From contig JAIZWK010000001.1 of the NCBI GenBank assembly GCA_021498095.1, positions 4,226,768 through 4,258,767 of the forward strand: a DNA stretch of 32,000 nucleotides. The letters are read 5' to 3'. This DNA is from Candidatus Harpocratesius repetitus (GTDB lineage: Archaea; Asgardarchaeota; Lokiarchaeia; Sigyniarchaeales; Promethearchaeaceae). Below are positions 10,312 through 19,097 of this stretch, piece by piece. Below the pieces are notes generated by a model. It saw only the letters and a program-made list of their open reading frames with translations. It was not told where the DNA came from and did not search any database. The position numbers and the translations under genes were made by a program. The stretch's first letter is position 1, and every line of letters begins with the position of its first letter.

Positions 10312-11337
10312 ATGAATCTTTACAAATTGATAAAATCTAATTTAGAAAAAGAAAAAATCCTAGAATTTATTAAGAAAGAATTGGAAATTGGTTTTGATGT
10401 TAGGGCCGATATTAAGTATGCCTTAAGTTGTGCTGCTAAAAATGGACGTTTAGATGTGATTGAATTTTTGCTGGAGCGCAGTGCGGATGTTCATACCGAT
10501 ATAGATCGTGCCTTACAATTGGCTGTCGAATGGGGGGATTTAGATGTGGTTAAATTTTTGGTCGAAAATGGTGCGGATGTTCATGCCGATGATGATTATG
10601 CCTTAAGGCGTGCTGCTGAAGATGGGTGTTTGGAAATGGTTGAATTTTTGGTAGAAAGTGGTGCAGATATTCATGCCGATGATGATTATGCCTTAAGATA
10701 TGCTGCTAAAGGAGGGATTGTGGACGTGGTTAAATTTTTGGTCGAAAATGGTGCGGATATTCATGCCGATAATGATTATGCCTTAAGAATGGGCCTTTTT
10801 CATGAACATTGGAATATTGTTAAATTTTTGGTAGAAAGTGGTGCGGATATTCATGCCGATGATGATTATGCCTTAAGGCGTGCTGCTGAAGATGGGTGTT
10901 TGGAAATGGTTGAATTTTTGGTCGAAAATGGTGCGGATATTCATGCCGATAATGATTATGCCTTAAGGCGAGCTGCTAAAGGAGGGAATGTGGACGTGGT
11001 TAAATTTTTGGTCGAAAATGGTGCGGATATTCATGCCGATAATGATTATGCCTTAAGAATGGGCGTTTTTCTTGAACATTGGAATATGGTTAAATTTTTG
11101 GTAGAAAGTGGTGCGGATATTCATGCCGATGATGATTATGCCCTAAAGTACACTGCCAAAGGATGGTATGTGGACGTGGCCATATTTTTGGTCGAAAATG
11201 GTGCAGATATTAGTGCAATAAAAGAATATAAAGCAATCCTCAGTCAGCTTCGCAAAATATTCGAAAATAAGGGTGATCACAGCAATTTATTAGAAAAAAT
11301 CAACCAATATTTAAAAATTAATAAAATTATCCTTTAA
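10312..11337 (+). CDS. Ankyrin-repeat protein with short 30-aa repeats
   Basis: About 9 repeats of the type ADIHADDDYALRxAAxxGxxxVVKFLVExG on a 90-bp period; intact ORF. Confidence 0.92.
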   Translation: MNLYKLIKSNLEKEKILEFIKKELEIGFDVRADIKYALSCAAKNGRLDVIEFLLERSADVHTDIDRALQLAVEWGDLDVVKFLVENGADVHADDDYALRRAAEDGCLEMVEFLVESGADIHADDDYALRYAAKGGIVDVVKFLVENGADIHADNDYALRMGLFHEHWNIVKFLVESGADIHADDDYALRRAAEDGCLEMVEFLVENGADIHADNDYALRRAAKGGNVDVVKFLVENGADIHADNDYALRMGVFLEHWNMVKFLVESGADIHADDDYALKYTAKGWYVDVAIFLVENGADISAIKEYKAILSQLRKIFENKGDHSNLLEKINQYLKINKIIL

Positions 11338-11604: not shown

Positions 11605-12591
11605 ATGAAAAAATGGGGAAGAATAGCATTAATATTTTTTATATTAGTTATCTTGGGTGGAGCTGGTACTTATATATATCTTTTCGATATTTTTGCACCC
11701 AAATCGCAAATATCACAAGCGAGCTTTACCATTAACGGTCAGAACGTGAGTGATTTCTGCTATTTACTTCAATATAACAAGTATAATTCAGCAGAGGATG
11801 CAATCACACAAATGAGCGATACAGAATATGATCTTTTTGTTATTGATATGTATTTTGATGAAAATCCGTGGAGTACAGAACAAATCAGCAATTTAAAAGA
11901 ATCTTTAAGTGAAAATCAAGAACGAATTGTTCTTTGTTATATCTCGATCGGAGAAGCTGAATCCTATCGCCCATATTGGAATGCTTCATGGGATGCAGAT
12001 GAAGATGGAATTCCAGATGATGGTGCACCATCATGGCTGGATCAAGAAAATCCTGACTGGGAAGGCAATTACAAAGTAAGATATTGGGATCCTACATGGC
12101 AAACACTTATTTTTGGAACAAATACTTCATATTTAGATCAAATTATTAATATTGGATTTGATGGAGCTTATTTAGATATTATTGATGCTTTTGAGTATTA
12201 TGAAGAACAAGGCATAGAAGATGCCGCAGAAAGGATGGTGGATTTTGTGACGAATTTATCTTCATATTGTAAAGCGATTAACCCCGAATTTTTAATTGTT
12301 CCGCAAAATGGTGAATATTTAGGTAATTTTGCTAATTACTTAGACGCAATAGACGGTATTGGAAGGGAAGACGTATTTTTTACAGGAAACAGAAGAAATT
12401 CAGCAAGTACAGTCAATGAAACAACTTCCAATTTAGCTTTATTCTTGGAAAAAGGTTGCTTTGTTCTTAATATTGAATATCCCAGTTTTCCAGTATACAT
12501 CAGAAATTCTTATGAATTGGGTGCTCAATATGGATATATTACATATGTTGGACCGCGTGAACTTGATGAAATAGCCTATTATCAAAGATAA
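11605..12591 (+). CDS. MJ1477/TM1410-type putative glycoside hydrolase (GH114/PelA-like endo-alpha-1,4-polygalactosaminidase fold), N-terminally membrane-anchored or secreted
   Basis: CYISIGEAESYRPYW, ENPDWEGNYKVRYWDPTWQ, GFDGAYLD, PQNG and DGIGREDVF; hydrophobic N-terminal segment after KKWGR. Confidence 0.85.
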   Translation: MKKWGRIALIFFILVILGGAGTYIYLFDIFAPKSQISQASFTINGQNVSDFCYLLQYNKYNSAEDAITQMSDTEYDLFVIDMYFDENPWSTEQISNLKESLSENQERIVLCYISIGEAESYRPYWNASWDADEDGIPDDGAPSWLDQENPDWEGNYKVRYWDPTWQTLIFGTNTSYLDQIINIGFDGAYLDIIDAFEYYEEQGIEDAAERMVDFVTNLSSYCKAINPEFLIVPQNGEYLGNFANYLDAIDGIGREDVFFTGNRRNSASTVNETTSNLALFLEKGCFVLNIEYPSFPVYIRNSYELGAQYGYITYVGPRELDEIAYYQR

Positions 12592-12689
12592 AATAGAAAC
12601 TTATCAAATTTTTTGCGATTACAGTTGTTAATACATGCTTTTCATATTAATTCATGAAATTCATTAAATATTTTTCCTTTTTTTTTCTT

Positions 12690-13526
12690 GTGAAGAAAAA
12701 ATTTGTATTAAGTGATCTTGATGGAACCTTATTAGACGAACCAAATGGATTAAGTTTTGAAAATTTGACTAGATTGAACAAATTAATTGATTCGGGTCTT
12801 CAGTTTTCCATTGCCACTGGTCGAGATCTAAAAAAGGCAAAAAAGGTCTTAGCTGGTGTACATTTAAAATATCCTGTAATATTAAATAATGGCGCTTTTT
12901 TAGGAAATTTAAAAACGGGTGAATTTTCTAAAATCACCACTATACCCCGAGAAATCTTTTCCACAATTTTTTCTTGGAGTGAAATGATAAAGTTAAAACC
13001 TATTGTTATGATTAGTTTTGACCAAATAAATAAGAAAGTTAAAATGGAAAAGGGGACATGGGGAAAAAAAGGTATTAAATATCTAACCCAAGATCAAATT
13101 GATAATTTAATTTCGCAAGATATTGTTAGTCTCCAATTTCATGCCCAAAAAGATGATCTTTTCCCTTTTTATCAAAAAATTCTGCAAGAATTTCCTGATC
13201 AAATAAAAATAGTATTTATCGAAGATGTTGGTTATAAAAAACTAAATATTAACGGAGAATGGTTTTGGTTAGAAATTAATGGCCCTAAAGCGGGAAAAGG
13301 AAACATGATGAAAGAATTAGCCATGATGTTCCAATACAAACTTGAAGATTTTGTTGTATTTGGGGATAATATTAATGATCTTGAACTTATGCAAATGGCA
13401 GGACTTAGTGTGGCTGTTGAAGATGCACAACCTGAAATAAAGGAAATTGCAGATGTCATTACTGAAAGCTCAAACAATATGGGTGTGGTTAAATTTATCG
13501 AAAAAAATATTGATGAATTTATTTAG
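12690..13526 (+). CDS. Cof-type HAD-IIB hydrolase
   Basis: DLDGTLL, ATGR, GKG and GDNINDLELM; GTG at 12690 preferred as start. Confidence 0.9.
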   Translation: MKKKFVLSDLDGTLLDEPNGLSFENLTRLNKLIDSGLQFSIATGRDLKKAKKVLAGVHLKYPVILNNGAFLGNLKTGEFSKITTIPREIFSTIFSWSEMIKLKPIVMISFDQINKKVKMEKGTWGKKGIKYLTQDQIDNLISQDIVSLQFHAQKDDLFPFYQKILQEFPDQIKIVFIEDVGYKKLNINGEWFWLEINGPKAGKGNMMKELAMMFQYKLEDFVVFGDNINDLELMQMAGLSVAVEDAQPEIKEIADVITESSNNMGVVKFIEKNIDEFI

Positions 13527-15015
13527 CTTCTTTTGTTGATTCAATTATTTTTTCAGAAAAATTATCTGGGCTACGCAATCGAGCTAAAATATCATCTAAA
13601 CTCTCACCTTCAATTTCTAATGCGATAGTTTTACCATCTGTTTGAACTTTCACAGGAGAATCATCAATATCTGTAATCTTTGGAATATTCCTAACAGATA
13701 TTTTCATATTTTTTGAAATGAGTTTTTCAATTATTTCTTCACCTGATAAATTCCCAATTTCTTGAATTGGAATTGAGTTCAATTCTTCATCAAATTCTTC
13801 ACCGGAAAGAATTCCGCGATACAACAACCCTTGTTGATGAATTTTTTTCTTAATTTCATCAGATGTAAGATCACCACCTACTTTCCCTTCAGATATTTCT
13901 CCCAATCCGTGCATAAGTTCTTGTAAATCAGAAATGATTTCTTCACTTATTTCAGAATTCTTCAATAATAGTATTTCTTGTTCCATTATTCGCGCTTTTT
14001 TAATACGTTCTTCAATATTTGGAATCTGAGCTAAAATTTCAAGTTGTTTACGTCTTTCATTTAAAAGAGATTCTCGTTCTTGCTGCTTAGCAATTTTGAT
14101 TTCGTCATAATGATCTTTAAAATATGTAATACTATAATTAATTAAATCTGCGACATCTCTCCATTCATTTTTTTGAACAAGACTTTCAATCCATAAAAGT
14201 AAATGACGCTTTATTGGAACAGTAATGAGTTTATGGTCGCGAGATACATGTTTTTCAGTATCAGGTGGTTCTAGCAGCCATTTAAAGATATTTGCAATAA
14301 AATCTTGGTTATTTAGGGCAAAAAAACCATATGCAGAAGAAAGAGAAGAGAGCATGGATACAGTAGGTAGTCCAATCACACGACCTTTATAGACTTTAGA
14401 GTAAATTGCCATAATTGATTTCCAGGCATCAACATCTTCAACCCATTCACCATCTATCCATTCAGTACTATAAGCATTAATACTTGATCGTGCTAGAGGT
14501 ATTACGTCTATATTTAGATCAGCAGCGATTAACTGATCGATTTCAATTGAACAAGCACTCGATAGTACAATAGAAGATATATTCCGGGTTGTTGGATGAG
14601 GCTCAAAATCACTGATAATTACTCTCGATTCTTGTCTTTGAAAGTGAACTGAATCATATATAATATTATTTTTATATTTAAAACCAAAAAATTGAGTTAA
14701 TTCTGATAAATTTGAATCTGTTCCAAAATCTCCACCTTCATCATGGAAAATTAATAGATTACCACCTTTACGAACGTACTCTACTAATACTTTTATCTCA
14801 TCTGAACTAAATTTCGATTCCCTAGGTCCACCAATAACCACTAATCGATATTTCTTTAATTTCTTAATATTTGTAAAACCTGCTTGAATTTTTCCTAATC
14901 TAAAGGATGAAGAAAAGAGAAATTGAGTAAAATCTGCATTACTGGGAGATTCAATGGTTAAAGTATTTTGATGGCTGTAATCAAAGCATATCGTATTTTC
15001 TAAAATATTAGGCAT
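13519..15015 (-). CDS. GIFT (GldG/IFT52-like, DUF4350-related) domain plus ribbon-helix-helix-like segment and coiled coil
   Basis: LVVIGGPRESKFSSDEIKVLVEYVRKGGNLLIFHDEGG...SNLSEL...NIFKWLL, then an RHH-like ITVPIKRHLLLWIESLVQKNEWRDVADLINYSI and a charged helical tail. Confidence 0.7.
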   Translation of the reverse strand: MPNILENTICFDYSHQNTLTIESPSNADFTQFLFSSSFRLGKIQAGFTNIKKLKKYRLVVIGGPRESKFSSDEIKVLVEYVRKGGNLLIFHDEGGDFGTDSNLSELTQFFGFKYKNNIIYDSVHFQRQESRVIISDFEPHPTTRNISSIVLSSACSIEIDQLIAADLNIDVIPLARSSINAYSTEWIDGEWVEDVDAWKSIMAIYSKVYKGRVIGLPTVSMLSSLSSAYGFFALNNQDFIANIFKWLLEPPDTEKHVSRDHKLITVPIKRHLLLWIESLVQKNEWRDVADLINYSITYFKDHYDEIKIAKQQERESLLNERRKQLEILAQIPNIEERIKKARIMEQEILLLKNSEISEEIISDLQELMHGLGEISEGKVGGDLTSDEIKKKIHQQGLLYRGILSGEEFDEELNSIPIQEIGNLSGEEIIEKLISKNMKISVRNIPKITDIDDSPVKVQTDGKTIALEIEGESLDDILARLRSPDNFSEKIIESTKEAK

Positions 15016-15109
15016 AGTGGTAATAATCACTTCTATTATTATGCTAAATTATTTATCTTTTTTGAAGCTAAAATAGCTTTCTAATTATCAAAGGATCATT
15101 TTATTATCT

Positions 15110-15652
15110 TTATGATTCAGGAAATTCAACATCTAACCTTTTTTTCTGTCTGAGAAAAATGGTTGGAATCCCTTGTAGCAAAGCTTTTTTTCGTAGTTTC
15201 TTGTCATTAGTGGCTAAATAAATTCTGTAGTTTTTTTTCAGTAATTTTTGATCATTCTTTTTTGTTTTTTCTTCTTTTATAAAACAAAATTTATGAATAA
15301 TCTCTAAAAGAAAATCATCTACAGAAATAGCATGCTGAGATTTATCGGATAGTTTAGAGTAATTTATAGATTGCTCGAATTTAAAAGAATCTCGTTCTGC
15401 TTTAAATATTTCATATTTATGTCGCTCTAATATTTGTCTTGCAAGATTATAATTTTGTCGAAGAACCGTTGACCGCGATTCTTTTGCAATTTTTTCATCC
15501 AATTCAGTAAATACTGCTGAAGGTACAATCAATTTATATGAACCTGGAATCAATTGGTTGAATTGCTCATAAATGTCTATTTTAAATTGGGCAGGAATTA
15601 ATAAAAAATTAGCATCTAAAAAAATATAATAGATTATTGCCATTAAAACCAT
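15110..15652 (-). CDS. PIN-domain nuclease, Fcf1/Utp23-like (archaeal rRNA-processing type)
   Basis: FLDANFLL, VFTEL, VDDFLL and LATNDKKLRKK...GIPTIFLRQKKRL. Confidence 0.85.
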   Translation of the reverse strand: MVLMAIIYYIFLDANFLLIPAQFKIDIYEQFNQLIPGSYKLIVPSAVFTELDEKIAKESRSTVLRQNYNLARQILERHKYEIFKAERDSFKFEQSINYSKLSDKSQHAISVDDFLLEIIHKFCFIKEEKTKKNDQKLLKKNYRIYLATNDKKLRKKALLQGIPTIFLRQKKRLDVEFPES

Positions 15653-15663
15653 TATTTTATTGA

Positions 15664-17202
15664 TTAAATATTATTATAAAAATCTGAAAGTCTTTCTTTT
15701 TCTTTTTTCTTTCGCTCCTTTTCTTCTTCACTAAGATTATCATTTATATTTTCATTGAAAATCGGTTTATCCGTCGTTGGCGGTGCAAATGGTTTTGGTT
15801 CAGTAGTTGGCGGTGCAAATGGTTTTGGTTCAGTAGTTGGCGGTGCAAATGGTTTTGGTTCAGTAGTTGGCGGTGCAAATGGTTTTGGTTCAGTAGTTGG
15901 CGGTGCGAATGGTTTTGGTTCAGTAGTTGGCGGTGCGAATGGTTTTGGTTCAGTAGTTGGCGGTGCAAATGGTTTTGGTTCAGTAGTTGGCGGTGCAAAT
16001 GGTTTTGGTTCAGTAGTTGGCGGTGCAAATGGTTTTGGTTCAGTAGATGGCGGTGCGAATGGTTTTGGTTCCGTAGTTGGCGGTGCAAATGGTTTTGGTT
16101 CCGTAGTTGGCGGTGCGAATGGTTTTGGTTCCGTAGTTGGCGGTGCGAATGGTTTTGGTTCCGTAGTTGGCGGTGCAAATGGTTTTGGTTCAATAGTTGG
16201 CGGTGCGAATGGTTTTGGTTCAGTAGTTGGCGGTGCAAATGGTTTTGGTTCAGTAGTTGGCGGTGCAAATGGTTTTGGTTCAGTAGTTGGCGGTGCAAAT
16301 GGTTTTGGTTCAGTAGTTGGCGGTGCAAATGGTTTTGGTTCAGTAGTTGGCGGTGCGAATGGTTTTGGTTCAGTAGTTGGCGGTGCAAATGGTTTTGGTT
16401 CAGTAGTTGGCGGTGCAAATGGTTTTGGTTCAGTAGTTGGCGGTGCAAATGGTTTTGGTTCAGTAGTTGGCGGTGCGAATGGTTTTGGTTCAGTAGTTGG
16501 CGGTGCAAATGGTTTTGGTTCAGTAGTTGGCGGTGCGAATGGTTTTGGTTCAGTAGTTGGCGGTGCGAATGGTTTTGGTTCAGTAGTTGGCGGTGCAAAT
16601 GGTTTTGGTTCTGAAATTTCAGATTCTACTTTATTAATTTCATCTTTATTAGGAGGTAGTTTTACACCATTTATCTCTAAAACTCGTCGAAATATCATAT
16701 CAAATGCCTTTTTTACTCCTGTTCCATCTTTTGATGAAATTTTTATATGATCAAACATATTCAAAGGTTCTAAAAATTCTTTAGCATATTCATCACTAAC
16801 AGTTATATCTTCAACGCGGTCAAGTTTTGTACCAACAAATAAAATCGGAAGATTTGGATCTTGTTTTCTAATAATATTTACCCATTCTTCTAATCCATCT
16901 AAAGTTCGAAGTCTTGTTAAATCATATAATAAAAGTGCACCCCGTGCACCAGCAACATAAGAATCTAGCATAAATCGAAATCTCTCTTGCCCACCAAAAT
17001 CCCATAGTTGTCCCACAACTTCTACAGAATCTGGATGACCAGGTGGACCAATTGTTGAATTAAGAAGATGAAACTCAACGCCAATTGTCATTGCGGTCTG
17101 TTCTTGAAATTTACCTGTTACGGCACGAGTTAACAGTGTAGTTTTTCCTACACCACCTTGCCCTGCCACGAGGATTTTGAATACGTATTTCTTTTTTTTC
17201 AT
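15664..17202 (-). CDS. Rab-like small GTPase with a 280-aa proline-rich tandem-repeat tail
   Basis: G1 GQGGVGKT, switch I TIGVEF, G3 WDFGGQERFR, GARGALLLYDLT, G4 TKLD, G5 SSK. Start is ATG 17202 (512 aa). No C-terminal Cys. Confidence 0.92.
   Translation of the reverse strand: MKKKKYVFKILVAGQGGVGKTTLLTRAVTGKFQEQTAMTIGVEFHLLNSTIGPPGHPDSVEVVGQLWDFGGQERFRFMLDSYVAGARGALLLYDLTRLRTLDGLEEWVNIIRKQDPNLPILFVGTKLDRVEDITVSDEYAKEFLEPLNMFDHIKISSKDGTGVKKAFDMIFRRVLEINGVKLPPNKDEINKVESEISEPKPFAPPTTEPKPFAPPTTEPKPFAPPTTEPKPFAPPTTEPKPFAPPTTEPKPFAPPTTEPKPFAPPTTEPKPFAPPTTEPKPFAPPTTEPKPFAPPTTEPKPFAPPTTEPKPFAPPTTEPKPFAPPTTEPKPFAPPTIEPKPFAPPTTEPKPFAPPTTEPKPFAPPTTEPKPFAPPTTEPKPFAPPSTEPKPFAPPTTEPKPFAPPTTEPKPFAPPTTEPKPFAPPTTEPKPFAPPTTEPKPFAPPTTEPKPFAPPTTEPKPFAPPTTEPKPFAPPTTDKPIFNENINDNLSEEEKERKKKEKERLSDFYNNI
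15772..16611 (-). repeat. 28 x 30-bp coding tandem repeat (EPKPFAPPTT)
   Basis: Unit GAACCAAAACCATTTGCACCGCCAACTACT on the minus strand. Variants are mostly synonymous (TTT/TTC, ACT/ACG), with one PTI unit and one PST unit. Confidence 0.97.
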
Positions 17203-17952
17203 GAGGGAGCGTCCGTCCTTGTGACTGAATTTTGGATCAGAGAGTTTGAATGTTCTCAAATCTAAGTATAATAATATTATATAGAATGCTGATGATATAA
17301 TAAAATTTTGTTTTTGGATAGGTGTAATTTCTTTGGAAAAACAAAAGACTTTTTCAAAGAGCAAAATACATTTCCGAAAAAAGCTTTTGACGGAAAAAAG
17401 AACCTAAGGAATTTAACTTAGATATTAATTTTTACCAAACACTTGAATTTTCCAATTATTAACGGATGTTGAAAATATTTTAGAAACACAATCCAGTGTT
17501 AGCCCGATTATAGTTAATGATCAATGATTTTCACACAAGGACTATTAGTATTTATTATTTAAATAAATAATTTCGAAATATTAAAAATTTAATCAAAAAT
17601 CAAATTTATCATCATTCATCCTATTTCTATATTTCGTTAGCTCAATAATTGGCATCCCGATCTTTTAGATTATAAAACGAATATAATCAAATCAGAGAAT
17701 AAAATTTAATTAATGCAGGTGAAAAAATTGAATAAAAAATCAGAACTTTCCAATAAATTACGTTGCCATATGTTGGAACCATCATTCTATTTTAAAGTAT
17801 TATAGAATATTCAACTCAATAAATTGATGAATAAAAAACCAGTAAAAAAATTGAATATAAAAAAAAACTTTACTCGACGCACCCTTTTTTTTCACAATTA
17901 ATTTCCTTCCTTCATACAATCCTTCATAGAAATATCAACTCTTAAACCCCTC

Positions 17953-18122: not shown

Positions 18123-19097
18123 ATGAGAATAATGGGACACAATTTTAATGAAGTTCATAATCGTAAAGACACCGATTCAATTAAATGGAATCCGAAATTA
18201 TTGGAAGAATGGTTCCATGTTAAAGATGTTCTACCCTTGTGGGTGGCAGATATGGATTTTCGCGCACATGAATCAATTATTAAAGCTATAAAAGATCGGG
18301 CTGAACATGGCATTTTTGGTTATTGTTTTGCTGATGATAGTTATTATCACTCCGTTATAAATTGGTTTGATCAAAACCATAATTGGAAAATTAAAAAAAA
18401 TTGGATAGTAATCATTCCTGGAGTTGTCCCTGCTATAAATATGCTGATTCAAGCTTTTTCTCGACCGGGAGATCAGATTATAATCCAAGAACCTGTTTAC
18501 TATCCTTTCAAAGAAGGAATTCTCGCTAATGGGCGTCGACCTTTAAAATTGTTAATGGTCGATATGAGATGGATTTTGAAGATTTAGAAAAGAAAATTCA
18601 AAAAAAGCGCGTCAAAATGCTAATTTTATGTTCACCTCACAATCCTGTTGGACGTGTTTGGAGTAGAGAGAAATGAATTCAAAACGACCTTGCAAGCTTT
18701 GGGATTATCAGTAGGTGCTAATATTTTTGGAATGCTTGCTATAAAGACAGCATATAATAAAGGAAAAGACTGGTTAAAAGATGTTCTTAATTATATTTAT
18801 CAAAATTATCTCTTTTTAAAGCAAGATCTCTCACAATATTTGCCGGAAGCCATTGTATTTCCTTTAGAAGGAACTTATTTAGCTTGGGTCGATTTCCATT
18901 CCTTAGGTATTACTTCAAAAGAATTGGATCTTCTTCTTAAGCATCAAGCTAAAGTATTACTTGATGACGGTGGGATGTTTGGAGAATGTAGCCAAGGATT
19001 TCAGCGTTTTAATATTGCATGCCCACGTAAAGTTTTAGAAGAGACTTTAAATAGAATAGTTAATGCAGCTAGCATCTATATTCAAGAAAATCATTAG
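18123..19097 (+). pseudogene. patB: PatB/MalY-family PLP-dependent cystathionine beta-lyase pseudogene
   Basis: SIKW, LPLWVADMDF, GIFGY, PVYYPF; frameshift near 18545; [15 protein letters not shown] joined directly to NEFKTTL, so the SDEIH and SKTFN segments are missing; C-terminal EGTYLAWVDF and QRFNIACP. Confidence 0.85.

Follow-up and report, generated by a model that had tools for sequence, protein, structure and literature searches.

A GIFT domain joined to a divergent ribbon-helix-helix module in a soluble protein family of one Asgard archaeal order

The 32,000-nucleotide window analysed here, from the Asgard archaeon Candidatus Harpocratesius repetitus (contig JAIZWK010000001.1), carries on its minus strand, at 13519..15015, a gene whose 498-residue product combines an N-terminal GIFT domain with a ribbon-helix-helix (RHH) module and a helical stalk. 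This is a real, conserved gene, and its product reads as a soluble, cytoplasmic and modular protein. The combination of a GIFT head and an RHH module was undescribed before: literature searches returned no treatment of GIFT proteins in Asgard archaea or of a GIFT-RHH fusion, nor any paper in which IFT52 or the term 'GIFT domain' occurred together with Asgard archaea. Known carriers of GIFT domains are the ciliary scaffold IFT52, the oligosaccharyltransferase subunit OST48 and secreted bacterial proteins of the GldG type. With a probability of about 0.5, the protein is interpreted here as an RHH-dimerised sensor or one-component regulator, or a nucleoid adaptor, of the NikR/PutA type, and not as a subunit of intraflagellar transport.

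The coding sequence (stop included) was taken from the list of open reading frames (ORFs) and their translations. An in-frame GTG at 15030 would extend the ORF to 13519..15030 and the protein to 503 residues, i.e. by five, and residue numbers are counted from this GTG throughout. The ATG is the likely start, because the closest orthologue (71% identical) begins with MPQIHENT where the ATG falls and the database copy of the protein is 498 residues long. Every motif quoted in an earlier, sequence-only reading of this DNA (the original prediction), namely TICF, LVVIGGPRESKFSSDEIKVLVEYVRKGGNLLIFHDEGGDFGTDSNLSEL, GRVIGL and NIFKWLL, was found in the translation. No signal peptide was found in the protein, the N-terminus being polar and not hydrophobic, and no membrane segment (the highest Kyte-Doolittle mean over 19 residues was 1.36). 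Together with the Pfam, PDB and Foldseek matches given below, this agrees with the cytoplasmic GIFT protein that had been proposed. Orthologues are labelled 'IFT52 GIFT domain-containing protein' in UniRef (Promethearchaeum syntrophicum), 'Gldg family protein' at NCBI (several of them) and 'Arc/MetJ-type RHH regulator' at JGI (two of them).

The head domain (14257..15003, residues about 10-258) displayed a flavodoxin-like alpha/beta architecture according to Pfam, PDB matches and the structural model, and it belongs by its profile scores and its predicted fold to the GIFT superfamily of IFT52_GIFT, ABC_transp_aux, OST48_N and DUF4350 domains. It matched PF09822 (ABC_transp_aux; E 5.2e-13, 49.3 bits, curated cut-off 34.7) and PF23355 (IFT52_GIFT; E 1.4e-9, 37.8 bits, curated cut-off 27.2), and all 23 aligned orthologues matched both. 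The significant phmmer matches in PDB were IFT52 chains only (5FMR, E 1.1e-10; 8BD7_B; 5FMS), and the family profile as query matched IFT52 with E 7.6e-16. With 23 orthologues as input, AlphaFold modelled the GIFT core at a predicted local distance difference test (pLDDT) of 80-92. Foldseek searches with this model, which the original prediction had proposed as a comparison with IFT52, placed IFT52 N-terminal domains on top (E 6e-13 to 4e-11; TM score 0.76-0.82 on the target), followed by OST48/Wbp1 and then by ThuA-like proteins. The N-terminal GIFT domain claimed from the letters alone was recovered far above chance by all three types of search. That the closest structure is an IFT52 partly reflects what has been solved, since the match lists held no GldG structure. 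In a column-by-column alignment, residues D17, H20, D126 and H145 were kept in every sampled prokaryotic GIFT group including bacterial GldG, and C160 was kept in groups a, b, d and others (groups defined below); at the H20, D126, H145 and C160 columns, IFT52 displayed K, R, R and A.

The second module (14104..14235, residues 266-309) comprised a strand KLITVPI followed by helix A (275-286) and helix B (293-306), with the family signature K-L-I-N/T-I-x-L...W...W-x-N-x-(S/A)-D-I-I-N. Its strand differs little from MKLITVHL, that of archaeal CopG-type proteins, and the W-x-N-x-(S/A)-D-I-I-N stretch aligns with Y-P-N-R-S-E-A-I-R of the same proteins. Residues 262-312 of the family alignment were compared by hhalign with a profile of 35 RHH_1 domains from the source genome and 12 relatives; the match had a probability of 92% (P 5.7e-7, score 31) with the strand and both helices in register, while the highest score among 100 column shuffles was 12. 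When the whole-protein family alignment was used, the best local match again fell at residues 266-309. K267, I269 and N298 were present in at least 90% of the orthologues.

An AlphaFold model of residues 258-345, based on 50 homologues, had a pLDDT of 90.7 and displayed an extended segment, helices 275-286 and 293-306 and a long helix 308-334, the strand being unpaired in the monomer. The 11 best Foldseek matches of this slice were all RHH proteins (PrpA/ParD, ParD2, NikR), with root mean square deviations (rmsd) of 1.5-2.3 Å over 40-46 columns and E-values above 0.2, modest values that are normal for a domain of 45 residues. VIA-align, a tool independent of Foldseek, gave RHH proteins, antitoxins among them, as its eight best matches (Z 4.8-6.8) and also listed NikR, PutA52, SvtR, omega, ORF56 and AmrZ (rmsd about 2 Å, for NikR, PutA and SvtR over 43-46 residues). 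Over both tools, RHH matches spanned rmsd values of 1.5-2.4 Å over 40-50 residues, with VIA Z-scores of 4.2-6.8. Since short paralogues of about 310 residues end right after helix B, the module is a discrete conserved unit. By sequence profile and model it is a true but divergent RHH module, as had been proposed for about 14105-14235, and the RHH fold on which that proposal depended was indeed predicted.

Beyond the RHH module, a charged helical stalk (13894..14109, residues 308-379) was formed by three long helices (308-334, 339-357 and 363-379) in the AlphaFold secondary structure, in line with the helical segment anticipated after the RHH. A coiled-coil-like nature was hinted at by weak SMC and keratin matches of the family profile. 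The end of the stalk overlaps a motif common to most orthologues, DLxE(I/L)MxxLxxI(T/S)xGxVG (13837..13938, residues about 365-398, from the family alignment). The tail that follows (13522..13836, residues 399-503) varied among lineages and was modelled here with low confidence (pLDDT 36-74) as a small beta-hairpin and two helices. Most orthologues of family f1 shared the tail motif AD..LD.ALKSLGSFDEFSKKL, the tail of the window's genus has another form, and some orthologues of family f3 ended in a SAP/HeH tail (Pfam HeH 3.9e-4; second Pfam match 0.01). A search of the ESM Atlas with residues 259-503 gave no usable match.

The GIFT-RHH family was found, among the sampled genomes, only in one Asgard order. 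At E<=1e-30, GIFT-RHH forms occurred in 27 of the 151 Asgard genomes sampled, all 27 belonging to the window's order, and in none of the 123 genomes outside it. Within this order GIFT matches were present in all 41 genomes, three to six in each, and the GIFT-RHH form in 40 of them. Named relatives included Promethearchaeota metagenome-assembled genomes (MAGs) as well as Lokiarchaeum ossiferum and Promethearchaeum syntrophicum, the proteins of the latter two being each 49% identical to the target. Because nearly all members of the order that holds these two best-known cultured Asgard archaea possess the family, it should be amenable to bench testing.

The cytosolic GIFT paralogues, several of which are carried by Lokiarchaeia-type genomes, could be divided into five groups. 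Group a (GIFT, RHH and stalk) is composed of the target gene and its orthologues. Group b (about 310 residues) displays GIFT and RHH without stalk or tail, and group c (about 310 residues) a GIFT domain without RHH. Soluble GIFT heads lacking an RHH module are also found in group d (455-510 residues), where the head is followed by a long stretch of disorder and, at the C-terminus, a coiled coil, and in group e (about 250 residues). The source genome itself encodes a group-d paralogue of 508 residues (L001 1444-2967 on the plus strand, corresponding to G000:C1:253363-254886), in which a long low-complexity stretch separates the GIFT head from a coiled coil at the C-terminus. This paralogue scored 57.7 bits with PF23355 against 37.8 for the target, had no PF09822 match and matched PDB IFT52 at 2.4e-12. 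The clade to which it belongs is large and includes Helarchaeota, Ranarchaeia and one MAG labelled Korarchaeota. Two further giant ORFs (1766 and 1287 residues; L003 and L004) also displayed GIFT matches. In family f3, paralogue b lies in a conserved block composed of gyrB, gyrA, a small cupin gene on the opposite strand, b itself and, directly downstream of it, a Metallophos_2 phosphoesterase (L099 2625-9054; L100-L104), and in G016 (L106 2117-7698) the genes on either side of the short GIFT-RHH paralogue encode large proteins matching MIT domains (3.5e-12 in one case) and TPRs.

The relation to IFT52 was considered separately. A search of 1.84 billion representative sequences with the group-d head gave 890 matches, and a green-algal IFT52 (P0179) was among the best 150. 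P0179 led to 120 eukaryotic IFT52s, and an alpha-proteobacterial GldG set was obtained via a plasmid match; tblastn against plasmids recovered a single bacterial GldG gene only. The prokaryotic part of the trees consisted of relatives of group d and one narrow bacterial clade, and thereby favoured proteins related to d. Across the complete GIFT domain the target was 20.6% identical to IFT52s, 20.4% to alpha-proteobacterial GldG and 31.5% to group b, and group d was 25.1% identical to IFT52. In a FastTree of 195 rows, IFT52 was adjacent to the d-type clade (support 91, not starred), and the target stood apart from it with b, c and e. In the same tree, P0135, a 1886-residue protein annotated in the crinoid Anneissia japonica with eight GIFT-like stretches, was attached to the IFT52 clade by a long branch; it could be a contaminant or a eukaryotic GIFT protein other than IFT52.

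A more careful maximum-likelihood tree (71 rows, 234 columns, LG+C20+F+G4) supported an order-specific clade a+b+e at 100/91, with a nested among b, and did not resolve the backbone in which IFT52 lies, on a branch 2.3 substitutions per site long. This tree served for the approximately unbiased (AU) tests instead of the quick one, on which the constrained tree was better than the short free search by 27 log-likelihood (lnL) units. With the narrow prokaryotic sample, a grouping of IFT52 with a+b+e was not rejected (delta lnL 2.7, p 0.335), while IFT52 together with the target orthologues alone was marginally rejected (delta lnL 16.7, p 0.032). The sister grouping between Asgard archaea and eukaryotes for which the original prediction had suggested a GIFT phylogeny was not recovered for the target orthologues, and neither was a position inside a generic GldG clade, the target lying outside the sampled bacterial one. 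The IFT52 central region (PF23352) was matched neither in the protein nor in the 4.36-Mb genome at E<=0.1, and IFT46 (PF12317) was not matched in the genome at the same threshold. The IFT52 C-terminal domain (PF21178) likewise had no match in protein or genome at E<=0.1, in a single weak search in which control genomes were matchless too. Orthology with IFT52 was rejected on the strength of these missing matches in the genome. Taken together, the sequence, tree, AU and genome results make the target a true domain-level homologue of IFT52, but neither its orthologue nor its closest archaeal relative. Of the proposed closeness to the ciliary IFT-B core subunit, the homology of the GIFT domain was retained; a special proximity was not, given the equal identity to GldG and the more IFT52-like paralogue d.

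Known RHH proteins all form an antiparallel ribbon from the N-terminal strands of two chains, and by this analogy the GIFT-RHH protein is a predicted homodimer. Two chains would pair the strands of their RHH modules in this manner and display two GIFT heads. The ribbon, aided in some lineages by the SAP/HeH tail, most likely contacts nucleic acid, and this tail was counted in favour of the regulator reading as a second module of nucleic-acid type. The head, with D17, H20, D126, H145 and C160, would act as a sensor binding a ligand, a metal or a partner. This provides a concrete hypothesis for a prokaryotic cytosolic GIFT domain, that of a sensor with conserved His, Asp, His and Cys positions, and the domain would here be the soluble head on a dimer module of DNA-binding type.

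Several observations weigh against a regulator of this kind. Pfam searches at E<=10 gave no match for the RHH slice or for the C-terminal half, NCBIfam gave neither an RHH model nor any other relevant match for the protein, and a search of the genome with RHH_1 (PF01402) matched eight other genes, leaving the GIFT-RHH gene without a reportable score. At the start of helix B, the R-S-E of DNA-binding RHH proteins is replaced by N-x-(S/A)-D with a reduction in basic residues; of the outward-facing ribbon positions, one holds Leu and another varies, and the net charge of the module is 0. The neighbours in related loci are mostly housekeeping genes indicating no regulon, and the upstream regions of ten orthologous loci showed no operator-like repeat that was conserved. 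The paucity of basic residues in helix B and ribbon, along with the zero net charge, makes a dimeric cytoplasmic scaffold without DNA binding a serious, if rather doubtful, rival. The RHH would then be a mere dimerisation clasp, the GIFT heads would bind partners, and stalk and tail would recruit more. The missing operator, the variable tails and the long helical stalk fit such a scaffold, as does the protein-protein interface formed by the GIFT domain of IFT52, which binds the TPRs of IFT88 and the coiled coil of IFT57/38 (PMC9753473). The analogy with IFT52 is weak at the polar face of the domain, because the archaeal GIFT retains polar residues that IFT52 has lost; moreover, the conservation of the ribbon (K267, I269, N298) exceeds what a clasp would need, and the SAP/HeH tails of some orthologues point to nucleic acid.

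The other alternatives were judged far less probable than either. An archaeal protein directly ancestral or sister to IFT52, i.e. an Asgard 'eukaryotic signature protein' of the IFT core, would agree with IFT52 being the best solved-structure match by sequence and fold, with the preference of the family hidden Markov model for IFT52s (28-60 bits) over alpha-proteobacterial GldG (15-30 bits) and with the AU result for IFT52 as sister to a+b+e. It is nevertheless very unlikely: the structural argument is biased by the absence of GldG from the PDB match lists, the whole-domain identity to IFT52 equals that to GldG, IFT52 differs at the conserved polar positions, and the same-genome paralogue d resembles IFT52 more. 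In addition, the target is nested among order-specific paralogues, its exclusive grouping with IFT52 costs 16.7 lnL, and the genome lacks matches to the other IFT52 domains and to IFT46. More improbable still is an RHH antitoxin-like partner of the PIN protein encoded upstream (VapBC-like), or membership of a GTPase-PIN-GIFT trio. A PIN_9/PIN_4-domain protein of 180 residues (15110-15652, minus strand) is encoded between the GIFT-RHH gene and that of a Ras/Roc-family small GTPase (15664-17364, minus strand; Pfam Ras 3e-32), so that both lie directly upstream on the same strand, and the best structural matches of the RHH module are antitoxins. Against this, in 13 other loci, two of them from genomes of the same genus, the GIFT-RHH orthologue never had either gene beside it. 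The arrangement is therefore specific to the source genome, and a functional trio was rejected for this reason. A 498-residue protein that is nearly universal in its order and lies in housekeeping synteny hardly fits an antitoxin either, and its gene has its own AT-rich upstream region of 94 bp, with a TATA-like element. Least probable of all is the GldG-type accessory subunit of an ABC-2 exporter suggested by the NCBI name. PF09822 did give the top Pfam score, but this match does not discriminate, as eukaryotic IFT52s match PF09822 too. GldG membership was rejected since TIGR03521 scored 25.4 bits against an equivalog cut-off of 389.85. The protein lacks a signal peptide and a membrane segment; moreover, no ABC ATPase, ABC-2 permease or DUF4340 gene was present near the gene or in 12 related wide-flank loci, in contrast to the GldG operon of Bradyrhizobium.

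A sensor or regulator with an RHH-dimerised GIFT head could also bear on the origin of IFT52, in an improbable scenario that we mention for what it would imply. The cytosolic Asgard GIFT radiation would be the stock from which the IFT52 head arose, with the GIFT-RHH clade (a+b+e) as its sister, and the ancestral head would have sensed a ligand or partner on a DNA-bound dimer. If true, a core scaffold domain of the cilium would have begun as part of a chromatin-linked archaeal regulator. For studies of eukaryogenesis the present case calls for caution: the likeness to IFT52 is real at the level of the domain, and does not make the GIFT-RHH gene an IFT precursor.

On the other side of the GIFT-RHH gene, a Cof-type HAD phosphatase gene (12654..13526, plus strand; Pfam Hydrolase_3 2.5e-45) converges with it, the two genes sharing 8 bases at the 3' end of the GIFT-RHH gene. 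Convergent and overlapping pairs of this kind were also encountered in G001, G002, G010 and G011 and recur in the taxonomic family to which the window belongs; a HAD of 36% identity is likewise paired with the short paralogue b in G004 and G009. Glycoside hydrolases (GH114, GH2) were present near such pairs. The recurrent HAD neighbour is a lead towards sugar-phosphate metabolism and not evidence of co-regulation. In the window, the HAD gene is preceded by that of a GH114 glycoside hydrolase whose N-terminus is hydrophobic (11605-12591, plus strand), itself placed after a gene for a protein of about ten ankyrin repeats (10312-11337, plus strand; Ank_2 3e-52). GH114 and HAD genes adjoined the GIFT-RHH gene in close relatives only. 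A TYW2/Trm5-type methyltransferase was found upstream of the orthologue in the genomes of the same genus, and the other conserved neighbours were of housekeeping type (endonuclease III, rhomboid, PCMT and a methyltransferase-like gene).

The AT-rich spacer upstream of the GIFT-RHH gene contained a perfect 6-3-6 palindrome, AAGCTA-AAA-TAGCTT (15065-15079, 50-64 nt upstream of the ATG), which was not conserved upstream of nine orthologues and is possibly of chance origin. Further upstream, the C-terminal region of the GTPase is encoded by about 28 near-perfect 30-bp repeats (15776-16611) specifying the decapeptide PFAPPTTEPK, and the reverse frames of this array give rise to long spurious ORFs. 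Two adjacent ORFs of 154 and 149 residues (18123-18587 and 18648-19097, plus strand) resemble the N- and C-terminal parts of one pyridoxal phosphate-dependent aminotransferase or C-S lyase and, judged by eye, may represent a split or frameshifted gene.

Compared with known systems, the GIFT-RHH protein shares with IFT52 (OSM-6/BLD1, a subunit of the IFT-B1 core; PF23355; 5FMR, 5FMS, 8BD7_B) a homologous GIFT fold in a cytosolic, soluble protein, including residues P69, E78, G89-G90, G99-G100, N107, G116, G216, N241 and W251-L252. It differs from IFT52 by a domain identity of 21%, by retaining, like the other archaeal and the bacterial proteins, H20, D126, H145 and C160 in place of K/R/R/A, and by carrying an RHH module, a stalk and a tail instead of the IFT88/IFT70-binding central and IFT46-binding C-terminal regions. 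With the GldG/ABC_transp_aux proteins (PF09822; TIGR03521), accessory to bacterial ABC-2 gliding and export systems, it has in common a homologous GIFT domain with D17, H20, D126 and H145; unlike them it is neither secreted nor membrane-anchored, has no ABC operon, is only 20% identical and falls far below the equivalog cut-off. Its soluble GIFT head is shared with the cytosolic paralogues of groups b to e, and its RHH module with group b only.

The CopG/Arc/MetJ superfamily (PF01402) resembles the second module in its beta-alpha-alpha fold, its KLITV.I strand and, where helix B begins, the aromatic-x-N-x-S/A-acidic-I-I pattern. The nearest sequences are CopG-type proteins of the same genomes ('MKLITVHLPE...YPNRSEAIR') and the nearest structures ParD/PrpA antitoxins, NikR, PutA52 and SvtR. 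In contrast to these, the GIFT-RHH module scored below all Pfam and NCBIfam RHH thresholds, had the basic R-S-E and R replaced and displayed two invariant, family-specific tryptophans; it is located C-terminal to its partner domain and followed by a long helical stalk, and its dimerisation and DNA binding are predictions. In NikR and PutA, an RHH module is joined to a larger sensor or enzyme domain, and it is this fusion of an RHH with a larger domain that does not itself bind DNA that the GIFT-RHH protein most resembles.

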